DNA of 64,000 nucleotides, from assembly GCA_016286345.1 (NCBI GenBank), contig JAEESL010000002.1:7051-71050 (forward strand), written 5' to 3'. The notes beneath the pieces are model-generated. The model did no database searches. It saw only the letters and a list, made by a program, of their open reading frames with translations, and had not been told where the DNA came from. Below are positions 1,806 to 49,877 of this stretch, piece by piece; position 1 is the first letter of the stretch, and each line of letters begins with the position of its first letter. The stretch comes from Dehalococcoidales bacterium. GTDB taxonomy: Bacteria; Chloroflexota; Dehalococcoidia; Dehalococcoidales; UBA1222. Both the position numbers and the translations under genes were made by a program.

Positions 1806-2813
1806 TCAGGCTTCACAGAGCTCAGAGATCAGGACCATGACGGCAGTATCGGGATCCATCTGTCCAGTCTTGGTCTTTACATCGGCATCAAGGACTTTGC
1901 GGTAAAATCCTTCAAGCTGGGAAACAGAAAATCCCTTGGCCTGTGCAACAGGGTCTTTGATCTGGAATGAAGACAATTTTGTAACTGACAGAAGTTTTGC
2001 TCCGGTGTATCCCTCTTCCATCCACATCTTGACCCGCATGACTTTTCTCATCTGGGTTACGATCATGCTGAGCAGATAATAACCGTTGGCGCCTGTGCCT
2101 GTGATCCTTGTGTAATAGTTCATTGCTGTCTTCAGATCTTTGCCGAGAGTAGCATTGAGAAGTTTCCAGATATCATCCTGCTGACCGATTTCGGGAACCA
2201 TGCAGATGATATCCTTTTCGGTTATCTCCTGTCCGTTTTTGTAGATAAGGAGCTTATCGATATTGTTGCTCAGTGCCCACAGGTCACTTGAGAGATAATA
2301 CTTAAGTTTTTCCACGGCAGATGCGCTTATCCTGCCTCCGTTTTCTGCTACATATGACCTGATCCATTCTGAGAGTTTATTTTCAGAAACAGGAGCAAAA
2401 TTCTTGATATTTATATCTGAGATCCCGTCAAAAAGAGCTTTTGTGACCGCAGATGCCTTTGCTGATGATGAAAGTGCTCCATCCGTCAATACAAGGACTG
2501 TCGTCGGACAGATATCATTCTTCATTACACTGTTGAACTGTACGGGCAGAGAAAGAGAGTCATCATTCTTTTTTGATGCCTTTCCCTTTTCAGCCTGAAG
2601 CCTTTTTAAAAGGTCTTCAACGATCACAAGACGGTACTGCCCAAGGAACGGCATAGACTGAACGTAGTTGCGCAGTTCATCAGGGGTCACCTTGCTCCCG
2701 TCAAGTATGGTGGTATTGTTCTGAAGAGCATCCTGATCCCCCAGTCCGTCTTTGATCTTTTTCAAAGCATGTCTGGCTGAATATGTATCCTCGCCATAAA
2801 TGAAGTAGATCAT
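1806..2813 (-). CDS. holA: DNA polymerase III subunit delta
   Basis: 335-aa ORF. The N-terminus (MIYFIYGEDTYSARHAL), the length and the helical C-terminal half resemble the HolA family. This is family resemblance only. Confidence 0.7.
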   Translation of the reverse strand: MIYFIYGEDTYSARHALKKIKDGLGDQDALQNNTTILDGSKVTPDELRNYVQSMPFLGQYRLVIVEDLLKRLQAEKGKASKKNDDSLSLPVQFNSVMKNDICPTTVLVLTDGALSSSAKASAVTKALFDGISDINIKNFAPVSENKLSEWIRSYVAENGGRISASAVEKLKYYLSSDLWALSNNIDKLLIYKNGQEITEKDIICMVPEIGQQDDIWKLLNATLGKDLKTAMNYYTRITGTGANGYYLLSMIVTQMRKVMRVKMWMEEGYTGAKLLSVTKLSSFQIKDPVAQAKGFSVSQLEGFYRKVLDADVKTKTGQMDPDTAVMVLISELCEA

Positions 2814-2822
2814 TTACTATTC

Positions 2823-4535
2823 CTATGCTGCTGTCTGAGACTCTCCGTCAAGCAGATTTTTTCCGTTCGGGTCTGTCTGTTTGATGAGCTTGTCAAGAAG
2901 ACCTGCTGCAACCCAGAAGAGCGGGGAAATGATGGGAACTGAGAAGCTGAAGAAAGCATGGATTGAATAAGCTAAAACACTTCCTGCAAACAGGAGAATG
3001 AGAGGGTTTTTGCTCATATTCTTAACGCTTCTTACAGCCAGAGTAACCAGGAAAGCGATGTAAAGCAGGAGTGACGGAATACCGGTATTGGAAGCGATCT
3101 GCAGATAATCATTGTGGGCACAATCATAGTACCAGTTGATATCGAACAGCTGCTGGAATCTGGCACTGTTCTCTGCAAATGCTGCCTTGAATGTATCAGG
3201 ACCGGTTCCAAGCCACGGCCACTGAGGAATAAGTTTAAGGGTTTCTTTCCATACCCAGCCTCGATGACTGCCGAAGGTATCATTGAGATGTCCATGGAAC
3301 AGCTGGCTGAGTTCTCCGAGCATTCCCGGAGCACCGTAATATCTGGCATAAATGAATACAACTACTCCCACGACTGCAACTCCGTAAACCGCTGCAATGG
3401 TGATCCTGTACTGTTTAGGAGAGAAATTCAGTTTGTTGACCGCAGTCTGAACCTTCAGAAGTGCCGGGCTGGCAGAAGCACTGAATTTATAATCCTTGAA
3501 GAAGTAATAAAGCCATACAATTGCGACTGCAAATGCAAGGACCAGACTGATCTTAGCTAAGCCGCCGAATGCAAGACCGATCTTGACAGAGCCTTCGACC
3601 ATCGTCACAGGGAATACCTTATATACAAACAACGTCAGACAGGCAGCGAATATCAGTTCAAGGACTCTGCGTCTGTTTTTATTATTGTTGAAGAGAACGA
3701 GTACAAGTACTGCAAGAGCAGCCAGGCCGCCGACCTTGCCGCTGTCCGCATCACCGATGATCTCTGTCATAAGGACCATTACAAAGGCGGGAAGAAGGAA
3801 ATAGAATCTATATTTTCCGTCAAACAGAACATATGCCGCAAAGAATGTGGGGACGACGAGTGCAAAGTAAGCGGAAACCACATCGATATTACCCATTGTA
3901 GATAAGAACTGGGTATTTCTGTATGTATACCCTTCCGGGAAAAGATTAAGAGGATTCATTCCAAGGTACTGGCCGAAAGCAATTATAGAGTAGATGATAG
4001 AAGCGACAGCCAGGGAATAGATAACCGCTTTATGATATTTTCCGAAATGAGACAGAAGAACAAAAATCATTACATATATCATCGTTGCGAAGAAACCTTC
4101 GTAACGACCCTGTCCTACCCAGACATCGGAACCGTACTGTGAGGCGATTGCCGAGATCAGACAGACGAGCAGGTAACCGAGAATGCATAACTGGGGGACC
4201 GAGAAGCTTTTGATCAGCTTTTCCTTATCAAAATGGATCTTTCCCTGGAGCGCCTGCATAACAGCCAGCATGACCAGACAGCCTGCAAAGATCGCAAACA
4301 TGATCACATACTCAAGCCACTTTACGTGGTTCATGTCTGTATACAGGGTCTTGCTGAAAAACAGCGTGAATACTGTGAACATCAGGAGGGCATAGCCCAT
4401 GCCTATCCATTCATAAGGAGTTGTGCTCCACGGGTTTAAGAGAAACTTTCCGTCCTGAAACAGTTCAGTAAAACTGTTGGAAGAACGGCTTTGTTTCTTT
4501 TCTGGTTTAACGTTTTTGTTCTTTTTTGAGCTCAT
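2823..4535 (-). CDS. O-antigen ligase (Wzy_C) family polytopic membrane protein
   Basis: Many hydrophobic segments plus the Wzy_C-type loop CAHNDYLQIASNTGIPSLLLY. I moved the start to the ATG at 4535 (MSSKKNKNVKPEKK); the ORF-track start at 4610 adds a non-membrane leader. The start is uncertain. Confidence 0.6.
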   Translation of the reverse strand: MSSKKNKNVKPEKKQSRSSNSFTELFQDGKFLLNPWSTTPYEWIGMGYALLMFTVFTLFFSKTLYTDMNHVKWLEYVIMFAIFAGCLVMLAVMQALQGKIHFDKEKLIKSFSVPQLCILGYLLVCLISAIASQYGSDVWVGQGRYEGFFATMIYVMIFVLLSHFGKYHKAVIYSLAVASIIYSIIAFGQYLGMNPLNLFPEGYTYRNTQFLSTMGNIDVVSAYFALVVPTFFAAYVLFDGKYRFYFLLPAFVMVLMTEIIGDADSGKVGGLAALAVLVLVLFNNNKNRRRVLELIFAACLTLFVYKVFPVTMVEGSVKIGLAFGGLAKISLVLAFAVAIVWLYYFFKDYKFSASASPALLKVQTAVNKLNFSPKQYRITIAAVYGVAVVGVVVFIYARYYGAPGMLGELSQLFHGHLNDTFGSHRGWVWKETLKLIPQWPWLGTGPDTFKAAFAENSARFQQLFDINWYYDCAHNDYLQIASNTGIPSLLLYIAFLVTLAVRSVKNMSKNPLILLFAGSVLAYSIHAFFSFSVPIISPLFWVAAGLLDKLIKQTDPNGKNLLDGESQTAA

Positions 4536-4677
4536 CTTAACGACCTTTATATAAAACTTGTCATCAGATAGTAGTATAACATGACAGCATTGTTTAAAAG
4601 TAATGTGCAATTATATAAAAAAAGGATTATTGGTTATAATGGTTAAATTGAACTGATTATTCACAACGGAGACAGAT

Positions 4678-5619
4678 ATGTTTGAACCCTTAACACCGAA
4701 AATAGATATGTCTAAAATGCCTGCTCCTGAAAAGGCTCCGGGGTATATTGAAGAAATCGATCTCACCTTCAGGGAGGGGATCGTAAAAAAACAGATCGAA
4801 TCGATCAGGACTATGGTCCTTGAAGGTAATTTTGATGAAGCACTTCCTCTGATGGAAGGACAGCTGCCTATAGTAGAGGAATTTGAAAAAAAACATCAGG
4901 ATACCGAAGATAAGATTTACAGGATCTTTTATGAACCGATGGAGGAAGTCCTCTACAATGAGGTTTTCAAGCCTGAAGTCGAAGCCAAACCTCTTCCCTC
5001 TCTCAGCATTGAGGCATATCTTCTTTATGCAAGCATACTGTCACACTTCAAACGATATGATGAAGCTCTTGAAAACTTTGACAAGGCATTGAAAAGAAAC
5101 CCTGTTGAACACAGAGCCACCATCCAGAAGCTTGAGATATACAAGATACAGAAGAATCTGGATCTTTTATACGAAGACACCAAAAAGGCATTCAAATTTA
5201 TCTTTCATCCTGAGGACATTGCCAGACTTCACAGAAATCTCGGTTATTACTTTATTGAAAAGCAGAAATATCCGGAAGCTCTTTCATGCTATGCCATGAG
5301 CAGATCCTTCGAAAACTCCAAACTTGCCGTACAGGAAATGCAGTACATCATGAATGTTACGAAGGGCAATGTAAAAGTTCCTACACTGGAGGAAGCAAGG
5401 ATACTGGCTGCCAAGGGCGGCTATCCTCTCGGAATAGATGAACACATCCTTCCTCTGGCCAATGAAAACGCAAAGAAACACATGGAAAAGGGTCAGACTG
5501 CAAAGGCCAAGTACTTCCTGGAAGTCATATATTCCATCACTCATCAGGAATCGATCAAGAAAATTATCGATGAGATCGATGAACAGACCAGGAAAAACAA
5601 GGCAAAAGCAAACGGATAA
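4678..5619 (+). CDS. TPR-like repeat protein, function unknown
   Basis: 313-aa ORF. Helical repeat segments such as YDEALENFDKALKRNPVEHRATIQKLEIY and YPEALSCYAMSRSF look TPR-like. Confidence 0.45.
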   Translation: MFEPLTPKIDMSKMPAPEKAPGYIEEIDLTFREGIVKKQIESIRTMVLEGNFDEALPLMEGQLPIVEEFEKKHQDTEDKIYRIFYEPMEEVLYNEVFKPEVEAKPLPSLSIEAYLLYASILSHFKRYDEALENFDKALKRNPVEHRATIQKLEIYKIQKNLDLLYEDTKKAFKFIFHPEDIARLHRNLGYYFIEKQKYPEALSCYAMSRSFENSKLAVQEMQYIMNVTKGNVKVPTLEEARILAAKGGYPLGIDEHILPLANENAKKHMEKGQTAKAKYFLEVIYSITHQESIKKIIDEIDEQTRKNKAKANG

Positions 5620-9215: not shown

Positions 9216-9220
9216 ACTTA

Positions 9221-9245
9221 AGGCCACCCTGCGGTGGCCTTTTTC
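9221..9245 (+). terminator. intrinsic terminator hairpin between the convergent P-type ATPase and radical-SAM genes
   Basis: AGGCCACC-ctgc-GGTGGCCT followed by TTTT on the plus strand. It lies 6 nt after the ATPase stop and 11 nt after the minus-strand rSAM stop, so it may act bidirectionally. Confidence 0.65.
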
Positions 9246-9255
9246 ATAAAAGCTG

Positions 9256-10272
9256 TTACTTACTTATCAGAGCACAGTGCGGCGATTCATAGATCTTTCC
9301 ATGAACGAAATAATTGTATGAACGGCAGCCGCCCGCACAGTATTTTCCATGGCTGCATGTTGCGCAGTTTCCTGTGAGCATATCTGATTTGAAGTGTCTG
9401 TTATAAGCAAAAGCATCGGGATCTTCCCATATATCACGGAGCTTCTTTTCGCGTAAATTGCCTTCTATGAAACAGTCTGCATACATGGATTCACAACCGC
9501 GGACATTCCCCACACTGTCGATACCGATCGAATTGATTCCGGCGGAGCATCCGCTGAACGGGACTGTTCCGTTAATGTTTCCGCGAAGACGGGCATCGTC
9601 TTCCGTATAGTAGCCGATATTATCCGCAAAACCGAGCAGAAAAGGCGCAGTCTTTGCATATTTCCTGACAAAATCTATGACCTTCCATACATCAAATGAA
9701 TACGGAACTCCGCTGTTTGCAGCATTTCCCATCGGAGAGCATGCCTGCAGCTGCCAGGCTCCGATTCCGGTATTACGGAGTATCAGATATAACTCTTCCA
9801 GTCTATCCACGTTTTCTGCATTCAGAGTGGAAATAACCGAAGTCGGGATACCGGCATCATTCAGAGTGTGTATGGCTTCTATGGCTCGTTTGTAACTGCC
9901 TGTCTGACGGTATTTATCATGAACATCCTCAGGTCCATCCAGAGAGACTGCAATGGATTCGATATTGACCTCCCGGAGAGTTTTTATGAGCTCCGGACGG
10001 AATAAGAATCCGTTTGTAATGATACAGACACGGATATTGTGATCGGTAAAGCTTTTTACGATCGTCGCCCAGTCAGGTCTCATAAAGACCTCTCCGCCGA
10101 TCAGAGATACTCTGCGACAGCCAAGATCAGCAAGCTGTTCAACGATCGAAAGACACTCTTCCGTTGTAAGTTCATTATCCCGTGCCCTGCCGCCTCTTGA
10201 TCCGCAGTAACGGCAGGAAAAAGAGCATGCCAGGGTTATTTCAAAAACACAGGAACGAAGTCTGAATTTCAT
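9256..10272 (-). CDS. radical SAM / SPASM-domain enzyme (candidate peptide/protein maturase)
   Basis: 338 aa. It has the rSAM cluster motif C16-x3-C20-x2-C23 (ACSFSCRYC) and a GGE motif (LIGGEVF). The SPASM signature is complete: C242-x12-G-x4-C260, C303-x2-C306-x5-C312-x3-C316, C333. The start codon overlaps the stop of the upstream small ORF (ATGA at 10269..10272). Confidence 0.9.
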   Translation of the reverse strand: MKFRLRSCVFEITLACSFSCRYCGSRGGRARDNELTTEECLSIVEQLADLGCRRVSLIGGEVFMRPDWATIVKSFTDHNIRVCIITNGFLFRPELIKTLREVNIESIAVSLDGPEDVHDKYRQTGSYKRAIEAIHTLNDAGIPTSVISTLNAENVDRLEELYLILRNTGIGAWQLQACSPMGNAANSGVPYSFDVWKVIDFVRKYAKTAPFLLGFADNIGYYTEDDARLRGNINGTVPFSGCSAGINSIGIDSVGNVRGCESMYADCFIEGNLREKKLRDIWEDPDAFAYNRHFKSDMLTGNCATCSHGKYCAGGCRSYNYFVHGKIYESPHCALISK

Positions 10273-10619
10273 TTTCTGTAAAGATTAAGATCTATTCCGC
10301 ATTTATCACAGGTGTTTGCGGCGTCATCAACTTTATTTCCGCAATTTGGACAGAAATTGATTGCAGGATTTTCACTGCTAACTGAACGATTCTCAGGATA
10401 TCCGGGGTCATCCACTGGTTCTTCAAACATATCAGGACCGGCATAAACATCCTCGCAGGGGTTGTCATTGACGTTAAAAGGATTTTTTTTCTGAAAAAAA
10501 TCAGGGCCTGCATAGACACCTTCGCACGGATCGGTATCTTTTTTCTTCTTTTTGAAATAATCCGGACCGGCATAAACACACTTCATCGGCTCGTGTTTAC
10601 CGAATAAACGAAAACTCAT
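10269..10619 (-). CDS. YAGPD-repeat protein B with C-terminal zinc ribbon (candidate rSAM substrate)
   Basis: 116 aa, with RBS GGAGG 8 nt upstream. It carries three repeats: KC-VYAGPDYF, PCEG-VYAGPDFF and PCED-VYAGPDMF. These are followed by a YPEN motif and CPNCG-x10-CDKCG. Confidence 0.75.
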   Translation of the reverse strand: MSFRLFGKHEPMKCVYAGPDYFKKKKKDTDPCEGVYAGPDFFQKKNPFNVNDNPCEDVYAGPDMFEEPVDDPGYPENRSVSSENPAINFCPNCGNKVDDAANTCDKCGIDLNLYRK

Positions 10620-11007
10620 TTATGACCTCCTGGCACTGACAATTTATTGTTGTCGTGGTGAACCGCACTCTGGACAGAATTTTGACGGTACTTCAAATTT
10701 GAAGCCACAGCTGGTACAGTAATTCTTTTCGTCACTATCACTTCCGTCTGCATGATTTTCAGGATATACGGGTGTTTTATACGTGTCCGGCATAGCAGCG
10801 CCCATAAACATAAAGCCTTGAGGGTTTCTGTTGTAGAAGTCAGGACCGGCATAAGTCATCATCATCGTCTGGTCAGACGGAGGAGTTGAAGGAAACGAAG
10901 GTTTATCCTGTGGAGTCACTTCAGAATTGGATTCATTGCTGTCTTTCTCCTGAGACTGATCCTCTAATCCCTGCTTATTTGCAAAATAATCAGGACCGGC
11001 ATAAACA
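10433..11007 (-). repeat. five dispersed copies of a roughly 17-nt coding repeat (plus-strand word CAGGACCGGCATAAACA and variants) encoding YAGPD
   Basis: Copies lie at 10433..10449, 10502..10518 (diverged: cagggcctgcatagaca), 10562..10578, 10841..10857 and 10991..11007. All are in the reading frame of the two small ORFs. Confidence 0.75.
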
Positions 11008-11039
11008 CATTTCATCGGTTCATTAGGATTTTCAATCAT
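10644..11039 (-). CDS. YAGPD-repeat protein A with C-terminal zinc ribbon (candidate rSAM substrate, paralog of B)
   Basis: 131 aa, with RBS AAGGAGG upstream. It carries KC-VYAGPDYF and a Cys-less MMMT-YAGPDFY copy, then YPEN and CTSCG-x10-CPECG. The N-terminal 13-mer EPMKCVYAGPDYF is identical to protein B. Confidence 0.75.
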   Translation of the reverse strand: MIENPNEPMKCVYAGPDYFANKQGLEDQSQEKDSNESNSEVTPQDKPSFPSTPPSDQTMMMTYAGPDFYNRNPQGFMFMGAAMPDTYKTPVYPENHADGSDSDEKNYCTSCGFKFEVPSKFCPECGSPRQQ

Positions 11040-11185: not shown

Positions 11186-11221
11186 TTAAAAAATACACCC
11201 CCTTGGGATCAAGGGAGTGTA
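11186..11221 (-). terminator. intrinsic terminator of rho
   Basis: Minus strand reads TACACTCCCTT-gatccc-AAGGGGGTGTA (one mismatch) followed by TTTTTTAA, 37 nt after the rho stop. Confidence 0.65.
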
Positions 11222-11257: not shown

Positions 11258-13033
11258 CTAGACTGCCTTGTAACGATCTTTCATGATCGACTCAAGGAAT
11301 GCGGCATTATTGGATGTACGCTTAAGAGAATCTATGACTCTCTGTGAAGCTTCCTGTGTAGTAGCATTGGGTGAATCAGTTGCGATTGCACCGACCATTC
11401 TTCTGAGAAGTCTGGTGAGAGTGAATTCATTCTTTTCATACAGGAATTCATCCCGTCGGGTCGATGACTTGGTGATATCAACGGCAGGATAGCATCCGCG
11501 CTCTGCAAGCTTTCTGTCGAGATGGATCTCCATATTGCCTGTACCTTTGAACTCTTCATAGATCAGGTCATCCATACGTGAACCTGTATCGACCAGACAT
11601 GTTGCAATGATCGTCAGGGAACCGCCTTCCTCAATGTTTCGGGCAGCGCCGAAGAATCTTTTGCCGGGATGGAGAGCAACGGGATCGATACCGCCTGAAA
11701 GAGTTCGTCCGGAGGAAGGAAGTGCCAGGTTATATGCCCTTGTAAGTCTGGTGATACCATCCAAGAGAAGGAATACATCCTTTCCTGCTTCTACCATTCG
11801 CTTGGCTTTTTCGATGGCAAGTTCGGCAACTCTGGTCTGGTTCTCTTCGGCTTCATCGAATGTCGCTGCAATAACTTCGCCGCGGACACTTCTACGCATA
11901 TCGGTGACTTCTTCAGGTCGTTCACCGATAAGACAAACGATCACATGGATATCCTTATAATTCTCTTCCACTGCATTCGCAATGGCTTTCATGAGCATTG
12001 TTTTACCGGCCTTGGGAGGTGCAACAATAAGACCTCTCTGCCCGCAGCCGATAGGACAGAAAAGATCTATGATCCTGGTAGCTATAACATCGGAAGTGGT
12101 TTCCATGGTTATTCGTCGGTCAGGGAAAATAGGAGTGAGCTGGGTGAAAACTTTTCTCTGACGAGATTTTTCAGGAGAGATATCATTGATTCTCTCTACT
12201 CTGACCATACTGTAATATTTTTCTTTATCTTTGCCCGGTCGTGAAACACCGACCACATAGTCCCCTGTTCTGAGACCGAATCTCTTGATCTGAGACTGGG
12301 CAACATAAATGTCATCGGCACTGGGTAACAATGAATCCTGTCGGAGGAATCCGTAACCCTCGCCCAATATATCCAGAACACCTGAACAAAGTTTGTAGCC
12401 CTGACCCTGCTGTTCAATATAATGTGCCATCAGCTGCTCAACGACATCCTGCTTTGAATGTGTTGCAATGTCGGTAAGACCTGCGTCTGCTGCCATCTGG
12501 ATCAATTTGACGGAATCGGTTTCATAAAGCTGATCCATCGTCGGAACTGATATATCAGGATTTTTGGGATCATGAGAACCGGCATTCTGATATCTTCCGT
12601 TATAAAATTTTCCGTGTCGTTCTGTGTTAACGGCTTTAGCTGCATCTTCAGTATTTACATCAGTTGCAGCATCCGATGAAGATGCCGTCTCTGCAAGTTT
12701 TTCTTCAGCTGCAGACTTTTCCTTCTCGATCAGCCGTTTGGTCTTCAAAACACGTTTTGTGATTCTTCTTACAGGCGCAGCTTTTACTGATTCTGTTTCA
12801 GTTTTTTCCTGGGCCTCAGCAGGTACCGCTGCAACAGCCTTCTCAGGAACAGTTGCTGCAGTTTCAGTCTTGGGTTTTCTGCCGCGTTTTTTTACCTCTG
12901 GAACAGTTTCTGATTTATTATCAGCAGCTTTCTTTTCAGATGTCTTTTTTACAGCAGTTTTTCTTACAGGCTTTTTGATTTCTACCGCAGATTCTTCTTT
13001 GGTTTCTTCAGTTTTCTTTGTTCGAGGTGCCAT
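11258..13033 (-). CDS. rho: transcription termination factor Rho with a roughly 165-aa low-complexity N-terminal extension
   Basis: 591 aa. The core has the Rho N-terminal helix bundle ([22 protein letters not shown]), the CSD-like RNA-binding part ([14 protein letters not shown]), a Walker A (APPKAGKT) and the C-terminal ATPase. Residues 1-165 are K/E/A/T-rich. Confidence 0.95.
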
Positions 13034-48065: not shown

Positions 48066-49877
48066 ATGAACTATCCTGACAAAATACTCTCCAAAGTAAT
48101 GAAACCTGCCAGGTATACCGGCGGAGAATGGAACAGTGTTCGTAAGGACTGGGACACCACAAAAGTCCATATGGTGCTCAGCTACCCTGATGTTTATGAG
48201 ATCGGTACATCCAACATGGCTGTCGGCCTTCTGTATGAAACGCTGAACAACCAAAAGGAGATCGGTTGTGAGAGAGTATTCATGCCATGGCTGGATCTTA
48301 TCCAGCAGCTGAAAGAGCATAATCTTCCGCTTGTCAGCCTTGAGAACGGCCGTCCGCTGAAGGACTTTGATGTTGTCGGGATCTCGATCGGTTATGAACT
48401 GACCTTCACAAACATACTTACCATACTTGACCTTGGAGGAATTCCTGTTAAAGCATCTGAAAGAACAGACAGCGATCCTCTTGTGATCGGAGGAGGTTCA
48501 TCCTGCTACAATCCTGAACCTGTTGTCGACTTCTTTGACATGTTTGTTATCGGTGAAAGCGAAGATCTTCTCCCGTCTCTGTATGAAAGTCTCATGAAGC
48601 ATAAAAACAAAGGTAAGCTTGATAAAAAAGCATTCCTCAAAGAAGTGTCTGTTCTTCCGGGCGTTTATATTCCCTCCATGTATCAAGCAAAATACCATGA
48701 TGGTGAATTTGACGGCTTCGATATCATTGGCAATGCTCAGCCGAAGGTCAGACGCCAGATAGCAAAGGATCTTCCGTTTGCAGCGGTAAGACCGATCATG
48801 CCTTACATTGAAGCAGTCCATGACAGAGCCGGCGTTGAGATTTCCAGGGGCTGTACAAGAGGCTGCAGATTCTGCAATGCGGGAATCATTTACAGACCGG
48901 TAAGAGAACGCCCTATTGACGAAGTCATGGAAGCTGTCAGGGCCTGCATAAGAAACACCGGATACGATGAAGTTTCTCTCGTTTCGCTGTCCAGCGGAGA
49001 TTACTCCAGGATAGATGAACTGCTGGAAAGGATACACAGTGAATTCGGAGACAGTCTTACAGTCTCTCTTCCCAGCCTCAGACTGGACGAGCATTCACTT
49101 GAACTGCTTGAATCACTGTCCACCTCCCGCAAGAGCGGTCTGACATTTGCACCCGAAGCAGGCACAGAGCATATGCAGAGAATCATCAACAAATTCATTA
49201 CCCGGGATGAACTGCTGTCCACATCTGAACTGGCATTTTCCAAGGGTTGGACAGGGCTTAAACTCTACTTCATGATCGGACTGCCAGGAGAAGAAATGGA
49301 AGATGTCCAGGGTATCGTTGACCTGGTCAAAGCAGTACAGAAGACCGGAAACAGAAGAAGGATACAGATCAGGATAGGTCTCGCCAACTTTGTACCAAAG
49401 CCCCATACCGCTTTCCAGTGGGCTGGACAACATACCAGCGAGGTATTGACAGAGAAGCATTTTCTGCTCAAATCCCAGTTCAGCAAAATGAACGTCAAAC
49501 TCAACTGGACTGACACAAACATTTCCGTCATGGAAGCAGCACTGTCCAGAGGCGACCGAAGATTATGTAATGTAATTTATCTGGCCTGGAAAAACGGAGC
49601 AGTTCTTGATACATGGGACGAATGCTTCAATTTCCAGATCTGGAAAAATGCCTTTGAGGAATGCGGTCTGGATCTGTACAAATATGCCCAGCAGGAACGA
49701 ACGACCGACATGGCTCTCCCATGGGAACATCTTGATATGGGCATAAGCAAGGATTATCTTATCAAGGAACTTAACCGGTCACTGGCAGGAGAACTGACCA
49801 AAGACTGCCGTCATGGCTGCAATGGCTGTGGCCTGACATCAAATGAATGCCCGGTATTATCCGGAAAGGGATTCTGA
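48066..49877 (+). CDS. B12-binding-domain-like radical SAM protein (TIGR03960-like family)
   Basis: 603 aa with rSAM motif SRGCTRGCRFCNAG (C-x3-C-x2-C). The N-terminal Rossmann-like part and the long C-terminal extension are as in the family that often pairs with DUF2344. Family assignment is from memory. Confidence 0.75.
   Translation: MNYPDKILSKVMKPARYTGGEWNSVRKDWDTTKVHMVLSYPDVYEIGTSNMAVGLLYETLNNQKEIGCERVFMPWLDLIQQLKEHNLPLVSLENGRPLKDFDVVGISIGYELTFTNILTILDLGGIPVKASERTDSDPLVIGGGSSCYNPEPVVDFFDMFVIGESEDLLPSLYESLMKHKNKGKLDKKAFLKEVSVLPGVYIPSMYQAKYHDGEFDGFDIIGNAQPKVRRQIAKDLPFAAVRPIMPYIEAVHDRAGVEISRGCTRGCRFCNAGIIYRPVRERPIDEVMEAVRACIRNTGYDEVSLVSLSSGDYSRIDELLERIHSEFGDSLTVSLPSLRLDEHSLELLESLSTSRKSGLTFAPEAGTEHMQRIINKFITRDELLSTSELAFSKGWTGLKLYFMIGLPGEEMEDVQGIVDLVKAVQKTGNRRRIQIRIGLANFVPKPHTAFQWAGQHTSEVLTEKHFLLKSQFSKMNVKLNWTDTNISVMEAALSRGDRRLCNVIYLAWKNGAVLDTWDECFNFQIWKNAFEECGLDLYKYAQQERTTDMALPWEHLDMGISKDYLIKELNRSLAGELTKDCRHGCNGCGLTSNECPVLSGKGF

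Follow-up and report, generated by a model that had tools for sequence, protein, structure and literature searches.

A repeated V-Y-A-G-P tag in zinc-ribbon proteins encoded beside a radical SAM/SPASM enzyme: a possible splicease-like two-component system

Introduction

Spliceases of the PlpX type act at X-Y-G, where they cut out a tyramine equivalent (C8H9NO, 135.06 Da) so that an α-keto-β-amino acid stays behind in the chain (PMC11414181; PMC11626197; PMC9811515; PMC11002830). X-Y-G is the established splice site (PMC11414181; PMC11626197; PMC9811515), and the splice tag around it, 10-11 residues long, is recognised independently of the leader (PMC10533398; PMC5995677). The products, spliceotides, are treated as peptides made on the ribosome and modified after translation (RiPPs) with protease-inhibiting ketoamides (PMC11626197; PMC9811515). 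Non-cyanobacterial spliceotide systems have two components, and a helix of the substrate activates the enzyme (PMC11414181). Here, we describe a locus with a similar layout and a different tyrosine site. It lies in 64,000 nucleotides of contig JAEESL010000002.1 from a Dehalococcoidales bacterium; this whole stretch is called the window below. Two genes, A and B, encode proteins with five copies of a YAGPD repeat and are followed by the gene of a radical S-adenosylmethionine (SAM)/SPASM enzyme. By analogy with the described systems, the leading interpretation, held at somewhat less than even confidence, is that A and B are substrates of the co-transcribed enzyme in a splicease-like system acting at a non-canonical Y-A-G site that is repeated 2-11 times in disordered proteins.

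The V-Y-A-G-P tag

The five YAGPD copies of the window are split over A and B on the minus strand (Table 1). An earlier note on this DNA, made from the letters alone, had described the same copies. Their sequences and coordinates all match, and the limits it gave coincide with the first base of A's Cys11 (11009) and the last base of B's Phe65 (10425). Its Cys-to-Asp spacings were found again (C-x5-D in A1 and B1, C-x7-D in B2 and B3, no Cys in A2), as were the two hydrophobic residues after Asp in every copy. The composition of the window predicts 0.44 YAGP matches over all six reading frames (127,996 codons), against five observed within the 247 residues of A and B; five copies by chance are excluded. 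Two further YAGP matches in the window, at 48950 (YAGPD) and 6363, are both isolated. The match at 48950, on the minus strand, is a chance match, the antisense shadow of a 603-residue open reading frame (ORF) at 48066-49877 on the plus strand. This ORF contains CTRGCRFC and resembles another radical SAM enzyme; it has no connection with the locus of A and B. No model in NCBIfam, Pfam or PADLOC covers the repeats, and a hit of Pfam MgtT on YAGPDFY (18.5 bits, cut-off 27) was judged to be chance.

Homologous repeats were gathered in two sets, 237 repeats from 80 genome loci and 592 repeats from a HMMER search. Both agree on the logo Φ-x-x-V-Y-A-G-P-[E/D]-Φ-Φ, where Φ is a hydrophobic residue. 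Counted from Tyr (position 0, ~100%), position -4 is Met, Ile or Phe in about 80% of family repeats and position -1 is Val in 89-90%. Position +1 is Ala in 90-93% and Gly in 3-6%, +2 is Gly in 90-92% and +3 is Pro in ~100%. Position +4 is Glu in 40-49%, Asp in 16-19% and otherwise Pro, Gly or Ala; Tyr, Phe or Met follows at +5, and Phe or Met at +6. In these alignments, the conserved element is V-Y-A-G-P, and Asp and Cys are not conserved. The earlier note had proposed that such a logo would tell whether Cys or the pentad is the conserved element, and in both sets it is the V-Y-A-G-P core. The invariance of YAGPD that it reported holds within the window but not across the family, where the core is V-Y-A-G-P and the next residue is E/D or P/G/A. 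The VYGPP-type repeats with zinc ribbons that it mentioned exist as a variant of this family at locus L052 (VYGPPEYF, VYGPPEMY and IYGPPEMF). Among the window tags, A2 departs from the logo in its Thr at -1, which is rare (about 1% of family repeats). Cys stands at -4 in B2 and B3, where the family usually has Met, Ile or Phe, and at the variable position -2 in A1 and B1.

The pattern Φ-Y-x-x-P was observed 300 times, compared with 17.6 times in shuffled sequences. YAGP accounts for 193 of these 300 sites and Y-G cores for 18 (6%). With a looser pattern, position +1 is Ala in 84% and Gly in 7%. Met, Asn and Asp occur there occasionally. Core variants are YAAP, YASP, YGGP, YAPP, YGAP and YGPP, and four of them (YAAP, YASP, YAPP and YGPP) cluster on the enzyme tree. 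This clustering is compatible with co-evolution of enzyme and tag; shared descent alone could give the same pattern. Proteins carry 2-11 tags (median 5), and the median distance between tags is 21 residues. Abutting units of 9-10 residues also occur, a length comparable to the 10-11 residues of the PlpXY splice tag (PMC10533398; PMC5995677).

The gene pair

An orthologue of the enzyme (58-71% identity) is present at each of the 80 genome loci, which come from Lachnospiraceae, Oscillospiraceae, Christensenella, Mogibacterium, Eubacteriaceae and others. The same-strand ORF directly upstream of the enzyme has at least one tag in 76 of the 80 loci and at least two in 68. In an all-against-all clustering of ORFs from these loci, the enzyme and the upstream tag protein were the only conserved families; no conserved third gene, protease, exporter, secretion gene or MftB-like neighbour appeared. 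In the window, A, B and the enzyme gene form a unit of three co-oriented genes (9256-11039, minus strand), and the stop codon of B overlaps the start codon of the enzyme gene in an ATGA. Because of this synteny, the ATGA overlap and the lack of any other conserved neighbour, it is very probable that the adjacent radical SAM/SPASM enzyme has the repeats as its substrate sites, as the earlier note had supposed.

The pairing is also seen from the side of the repeats. Three repeat proteins were picked by sequence alone, and each of them is followed by an enzyme orthologue (3/3). An exhaustive HMMER search with B gave 233 cluster representatives at E<=1e-3. Among the 148 examined, 112 have at least two tags, and 94 of these 112 have a zinc ribbon too. 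A word-indexed homologue search with B returned only 6 proteins, and the exhaustive search was needed for the rest. The enzyme has 1,602 relatives in the database at E<=1e-20. The best 120 of them are 64-70% identical, come from rumen and gut Clostridia and are named merely 'radical SAM protein' by their sources.

The tag is modular. Upstream of the enzyme, it is fused to WXG100 (L060, L062, L063), FHA (L025, L048, L053) and ACT (L040) domains, all confirmed by Pfam, or to one to three zinc ribbons. Zinc ribbons are missing from a sizeable minority of family proteins, and the tag is the common denominator. Stop-to-stop ORFs at L061 (Fe-ADH-like) and L064 (PyrB-PyrI-like) may or may not be true fusions.

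The radical SAM/SPASM enzyme

The enzyme matches Pfam Radical_SAM with 108.8 bits and SPASM with 29.6 bits. It has both CxxxCxxC and a full SPASM domain, as is expected of a splicease. With its radical SAM motif beginning at residue 16, the enzyme has no N-terminal RiPP recognition element (RRE; PqqD-like) domain. No curated model in NCBIfam or PADLOC reaches its cut-off for the enzyme. The top-scoring one is TIGR04103 ('nif11-class peptide radical SAM maturase 3'), whose 238.7 bits are below membership (cut-off 725), followed by TIGR03913 ('GDL motif peptide-associated maturase'; 228 bits, cut-off 592) and then by WgkB (158 bits), AhbD (142), MftC (134) and StsB (132). In a tblastn comparison with plasmid records, one group of relatives, whose members are described below, reached 180-246 bits, and MftC and all others at most 131 bits. 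Identity to relatives of the TIGR04103 and TIGR03913 types is 33-40%. PlpX is placed in InterPro IPR026482 (PMC11002830), which is assumed here to correspond to TIGR04103.

A neighbour-joining tree (340 columns, 100 bootstraps) was built with few outgroups and without sequences of experimentally characterised spliceases. In this tree, the VYAGP-family enzymes group with the enzyme of Agathobacter rectalis at 100% and join the Nostoc TIGR04103, GDL and Tropicibacter enzymes at 90%. MftC, NirJ, TIGR04053 and an RRE-associated Bacillus enzyme fall outside the 90% clade. Every other relative in the clade has an adjacent X-Y-G substrate, except in Tropicibacter oceani, where no small adjacent X-Y-G precursor was identified. 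This X-Y-G-associated clade had escaped the earlier note, as had the single-copy Y-P-x-N motif of the substrates described below.

The AlphaFold2 model of the enzyme (pLDDT 86.7) has its best matches in the Protein Data Bank (PDB) with PqqE, SkfB, SuiB, BlsE and anSME (TM-score 0.62-0.74). These are generic SPASM enzymes, as are the matches of a sequence search of the PDB, and the comparison of predicted folds does not separate chemistries. We know of no splicease structure. Radical SAM peptide epimerases abstract a Cα-H and produce D-residues without a change in mass. In fold, EpeE matches the enzyme only distantly (TM-score 0.45-0.48), and no affinity to the peptide epimerases PoyD and YydG/EpeE was seen in sequence.

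Other assignments were tried and rejected. PADLOC gave only generic matches of the radical SAM core to pVip (56-60 bits, residues 10-184) and none for A or B, which does not indicate a defence system. The three-residue cyclophane motif, reportedly defined by Nguyen et al. in 2020, is aromatic-X2-X3 with a Cβ-H on X3. A triceptide of the XyeB type was dismissed, with Gly at X3 in about 90% of repeats and no XyeB-type model among the 25 best NCBIfam matches. Mycofactocin was dismissed as well: V-Y occurs within the chain and more than once, the 80 loci have no conserved MftB-like gene beside the pair, TIGR03962 reaches 133.9 bits (cut-off 265), and MftC lies outside the clade.

Relation to described systems

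The relatives in the clade differ in the substrates encoded beside them. On plasmid p057_G of Nostoc sp. C057, the enzyme, named as TIGR04103 by PGAP, lies between a Nif11 precursor ending in ...SIALYGLPPELF and a 71-residue protein, a layout that matches the A-X-Y order of type I spliceotide clusters. In Burkholderia, Azospirillum, Ralstonia and Aureibacter, tandem DUF1843/DUF1842 genes precede a GDL-type enzyme, and [L/P/M]-Y-G occurs just before the GDL motif. In A. rectalis, an enzyme 39% identical to that of the window follows an unannotated ORF ending in ...GPVMYGTGVRM. This locus (L087, NZ_CP143948.1) has the small ORF at 3707-3913, the radical SAM gene at 3995-5149 and an MFS transporter gene. 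Read from an internal ATG, the small ORF gives MFNLEELSLEFVKISELKTSKNLFGPVMYGTGVRM. The peptide resembles an X-Y-G (MYG) spliceotide-type precursor from a major human gut commensal. Gene callers predict it in many assemblies, and a homologue search found only within-species variants.

One family member bridges the two kinds of site. At L052, the enzyme is 63% identical to that of the window, and its substrate has only V/I-Y-G sites. These sites closely resemble LYGLPPELF of Nostoc and the PlpA2 tag PIRPLYGLPI. Common to the family tag and to the Nostoc and PlpA2 tags are Pro at +3 and a hydrophobic residue before Tyr.

The binary, Y-protein-free spliceotide systems (RhaX/RasX; Scott et al. 2022, summarised by PMC11414181; PMC11626197; PMC10849128) share most with the system of the window. 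Both have an RRE-less radical SAM/SPASM enzyme beside the substrate gene with no other dedicated gene, and in both the enzyme would recognise a short linear Tyr tag, some 10-12 residues long, in a substrate that can be a protein. The activating helix is carried by the substrate in the binary systems, and a candidate amphipathic stretch or Y-P-x-N would be its counterpart in the window. However, these systems use X-Y-G at 1-2 sites in leader-core peptides, whereas the family has V-Y-A-G-P at 2-11 sites in disordered zinc-ribbon proteins. Judged by these features, the window system appears to work like a binary spliceotide and stands apart in two points, the X-Y-G motif being absent and the family model scoring under its cut-off.

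In PlpX/PlpY type I systems, for which Nostoc sp. C057 is the example, the enzyme is 33.5% identical to that of the window over its full length. The Nostoc core ...ALYGLPPELF has the hydrophobic residue before Tyr, Pro at +3 and then an acidic and two hydrophobic residues, as in the tag. Unlike the window locus, these systems have a Y protein, a Nif11 leader and Gly at +1; the window has neither protein nor leader and has Ala at +1. TIGR03913 GDL maturases (35% identity) resemble the window in their tandem paralogous substrate genes directly upstream, a conserved Tyr site ([L/P/M]-Y-G), folded proteins among the substrates and a zinc ribbon as part of the system. They differ in that the ribbon is on the enzyme, each protein has one site, and the hosts are Proteobacteria and Bacteroidota, whereas the window family is found in Clostridia. 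The GDL maturases at L088 (2204-3679), L089 (2872-4428) and L090 (2926-4350) have this ribbon (CxxC...CPHC) at the C-terminus. The zinc ribbon may be a docking module that moved between enzyme and substrate, or its occurrence in both may be coincidence. anSME is likewise a compact, RRE-less enzyme that recognises a short linear motif in unfolded protein, not a leader peptide, and its fold is similar (TM-score 0.68-0.70). However, it belongs to an unrelated clade (15-16% identity), targets Cys or Ser in C/S-x-P-x-R and produces formylglycine.

Proposed mechanism and competing explanations

The splicease-like reading is preferred because the closest relatives of the enzyme are associated with X-Y-G, the site of tyramine excision. 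A, B and the enzyme would form a two-component system without accessory protein, protease or exporter. We infer that the tags are the substrate and that their Tyr is the target. The enzyme would recognise a linear tag of ~10-12 residues, Φ-x-x-V-Y-A-G-P-[D/E]-Φ-Φ, in a disordered chain. Docking or activation may depend on a single-copy element, Y-P-x-N and/or the basic amphipathic stretch, in the role of the activating helix. Radical chemistry would then act on the invariant Tyr of every tag. Most likely, a tyramine equivalent (C8H9NO, -135.07 Da per site) would be excised and the backbone rejoined, as PlpX-type enzymes do at X-Y-G, and the preceding Val would become an α-keto-β-amino acid (α-keto-β-valine; β-threonine in A2). 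The products would have two ketoamide sites in A and three in B, and the Cys residues would take no part in the reaction. The earlier note had set a Tyr-centred model against a Cys thioether. The logo favours the former, but the chemistries it listed (C-C or C-O crosslink, epimerisation) omit the tyramine splicing of the X-Y-G relatives.

Several points weigh against splicing at Y-A-G. Y-G is found at none of the five window sites and at about 6% of sites in the family. For both nearest families, the enzyme scores below the cut-off (239 vs 725 and 228 vs 592 bits), with 33-40% identity to their members, and the neighbour-joining tree has few outgroups. The A. rectalis peptide is conserved only within its species; that it and the TIGR03913/DUF1843 proteins are spliced is suggested by their motifs. 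Similarly, it is the recurrence of a pattern that points to the amphipathic stretch as an enzyme-docking or activating helix. On these sequence data, a change of chemistry is entirely possible.

Such a change would leave the enzyme-substrate pair and the tag as they are. The enzyme, a diverged splicease relative, would catalyse a different radical reaction at or next to Tyr, such as dehydrogenation, Cα epimerisation, β-hydroxylation or the formation of a C-C or ether crosslink between Val and Tyr or between Tyr and Pro. This is a serious rival, to which we give a sizeable minority weight, because Y-G is missing from 94% of sites and identity is only 33-40%. The site is Y-A-G, whereas described spliceases all need Y-G (PMC11414181), and the scores of both nearest models stay below their cut-offs. 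SPASM enzymes of similar fold catalyse many distinct reactions, and the strongly conserved V-Y is reminiscent of the Val-Tyr pair that MftC uses; the MftC model scores 134 bits. However, the closest relatives with an identifiable adjacent substrate all point to X-Y-G, and some family members (L052) have true V-Y-G sites. A reaction of the MftC type needs a C-terminal Tyr and the chaperone MftB, both of which are missing, and MftC is outside the clade; a three-residue cyclophane fails on Gly as X3. The thioether model of the earlier note, like that of ranthipeptides and sactipeptides, would link Cys to Asp or Tyr in each repeat and make A2 a decoy. It draws on the Cys found 2 or 4 residues before Tyr in four of the five window repeats, on a family-wide enrichment of Cys at -2 (15-16% of repeats vs about 1% background) and on the full SPASM domain. 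Yet Cys is enriched without being required: about 82% of 863 repeats (592+271) have none within -8..+9, 35-42% of family proteins have none near any repeat, and 25% have Cys nowhere but in the zinc ribbon, if at all. Where the model needs Asp as acceptor, about 80% of repeats have Glu, Pro, Gly or Ala. Ranthipeptide and sactipeptide synthases (CteB, PapB, AlbA, StsB) share the radical SAM/SPASM fold and, in some substrates, repeated motifs; the PapA substrate has six C-x3-D motifs. They need Cys donors and an RRE; Cys is not conserved in the family repeats, and the window enzyme has no RRE. The best sactipeptide-synthase model, StsB, reaches 132.5 bits against a cut-off of 625, and CteB and SuiB reach about 36 bits by sequence. 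Natural variation thus separates the two models as the earlier note had proposed, and because Cys and Asp are not conserved in the logo, the thioether is rejected as the chemistry of the family, being extremely improbable, and a Tyr-centred reaction is favoured.

The remaining alternatives concern the role of the repeats. As linear interaction or export motifs, for instance the type VII secretion signal Y-x-x-x-D/E, they would not be substrates, and the zinc-ribbon protein might be a partner of the enzyme. Y-A-G-P-[D/E] formally fits that signal, the tag is at the C-terminus of a WXG100 protein in three loci (PF06013, 43.7 bits), and in GDL-type maturases the zinc ribbon is on the enzyme itself. 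However, only 59-65% of repeats have D/E at position +4, where the tags fused to WXG100 have N or Q, and it is the tag, not the ribbon, that family proteins have in common. The core of the tag co-varies with the enzyme tree, and the relatives of the enzyme are peptide or protein maturases. Alternatively, A and B would be multi-core RiPP precursors from which the modified repeats are cut out as small, possibly secreted peptides. The repeated cores with variable linkers (2-11 tags, median spacing 21 residues) and the RiPP status of known spliceotides with their protease-inhibiting ketoamides (PMC11626197; PMC9811515) would suit this. Against it, there are no conserved cleavage motifs, and between different families of Clostridia the enzyme keeps 58-71% identity, which we read as more housekeeping-like than bacteriocin-type. 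Both alternatives are disfavoured because no protease, exporter or secretion gene is conserved beside the pair in the 80 loci and the tag is fused to folded cytoplasmic domains (zinc ribbon, FHA, ACT, WXG100). Released peptides are improbable, and repeats that are not substrates at all even more so.

Novelty and significance

Many Clostridia of the gut and rumen have the gene pair, which probably represents a new, non-canonical protein-backbone modification system. No curated model for the tag or the enzyme family exists in Pfam, NCBIfam (June 2026) or PADLOC. No literature on either was found in a search whose scope left out the primary splicease studies (Morinaka 2018, Scott 2022, Lakis 2022). 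The large published splicease survey counted Y-G motifs near SPASM enzymes (PMC10849128). Because it relied on Y-G frequency, it probably missed the Y-A-G family.

On a broader and rather doubtful view, anaerobic Clostridia share a widespread, housekeeping-like modification of which the V-Y-A-G-P tag is the mark. In disordered zinc-ribbon, FHA, ACT or WXG100 proteins, a leaderless enzyme would alter up to 11 Tyr in backbone or side chain, either by splicing at a non-Gly site, which would give native intracellular poly-ketoamide proteins, or by an undescribed Tyr-centred reaction. The intact product would be regulatory or structural, not antibiotic-like. If splicing at Y-A-G is true, the X-Y-G substrate rule is too narrow and a large family has been overlooked (1,602 enzyme homologues, 233 substrate representatives). 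There would then be natural multi-site protein substrates, a compact 338-residue enzyme and a 10-12-residue tag, useful for β-amino-acid or ketoamide handles. If the chemistry differs, the radical SAM reaction would be a new one, and its substrate logo is very clean. The natural variants are a ready mutational series, with and without Cys, with Val or Thr at -1, Ala or Gly at +1, and Asp, Glu or Pro at +4.

Other features of the substrate proteins and the locus

Table 1. Features of the locus in window coordinates. Residue ranges around Tyr follow the logo numbering; the second sequence given for each tag is the repeat copy.
Feature	Position	Strand	Description
Gene A	10644-11039	minus	131 aa; ORF with AGGAGG ribosome-binding site; two tags, one YPEN, C-terminal zinc ribbon
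Tag A1	10983-11018	minus	PMKCVYAGPDYF, -5 to +6 around Tyr13; fits family logo; copy EPMKCVYAGPDYF, Tyr codon start 11003
Tag A2	10833-10868	minus	TMMMTYAGPDFY; Thr replaces Val at -1, no Cys; Met at -4 matches logo; copy QTMMMTYAGPDFY, Tyr codon start 10853
Y-P-E-N motif of A	10755-10766	minus	VYPENHADG; single copy
Zinc ribbon of A	10665-10718	minus	CTSC...CPEC; Zn_Ribbon_1 21.9 bits, below cut-off 25; NCBIfam 4Cys_prefix at cut-off 24
Gene B	10269-10619	minus	116 aa; ORF with AGGAGG ribosome-binding site; three tags, one YPEN, C-terminal zinc ribbon
Basic amphipathic stretch of B	10596-10616	minus	SFRLFGK; N-terminal
Tag B1	10554-10589	minus	PMKCVYAGPDYF; copy EPMKCVYAGPDYF, Tyr codon start 10574
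Tag B2	10494-10529	minus	PCEGVYAGPDFF; Cys at -4; copy DPCEGVYAGPDFF, Tyr codon start 10514
Tag B3	10425-10460	minus	PCEDVYAGPDMF; copy NPCEDVYAGPDMF, Tyr codon start 10445
Y-P-E-N motif of B	10389-10400	minus	GYPENRS; single copy
Zinc ribbon of B	10299-10352	minus	CPNC...CDKC; Zn_Ribbon_1 31.9 bits, Zn_ribbon_3 27.3 bits, both at or above cut-off
Radical SAM/SPASM enzyme	9256-10272	minus	338 aa
CxxxCxxC motif	10204-10227	minus	C16, C20, C23; invariant in alignments
SPASM domain	9274-9549	minus	C242...C260, C303-x2-C306-x5-C312-x3-C316, C333; Cys invariant across aligned relatives; Pfam residues 242-306
Terminator-like hairpin	9220-9241	minus	9 bp, 6 GC; 15 nt past enzyme stop codon; from consensus scan only
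Terminator-like hairpin after rho	11198-11216	minus	Upstream limit of the A-B-enzyme unit; from consensus scan only
ORF read as rho	11258-13033	minus	Directly upstream of the unit

A and B are tandem colinear paralogues (BLASTP E=9e-15) with the order tags, one Y-P-E-N and a four-Cys zinc ribbon. Tandem duplication of the substrate gene recurs: L001 has ORFs at 2402-3001 and 3005-3958 with 5 and 6 tags, as the window has A and B with 2 and 3. Both tandem pairs resemble the tandem DUF1843 paralogues beside GDL-type maturases. In the AlphaFold2 prediction for B alone, almost every one of residues 1-86 has a pLDDT under 50, and the ribbon reaches about 72. As a prediction from a single sequence, this is weakly consistent with a disordered tag-bearing arm.

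The Y-P dipeptide occurs in 67 of the 80 upstream proteins, mostly in one copy and mostly within [K/P]-Y-P-x-[N/R/S]-[Y/F/H]; examples are KYPERA, PYPENYAEEP and KYPWIKSIF. This motif often accompanies the tag on fused domains. Basic amphipathic stretches such as FFKKLFGKKYP, YPWIKSIFKK and GLFTKLFKK recur in many family proteins, at the N- or C-terminus and often beside the Y-P motif.

A scan for sigma-70 promoters upstream of A gave no convincing match. The ORF read as rho, 591 residues long, has an N-terminal extension of ~200 residues that is rich in Lys, Glu, Ala and Thr.

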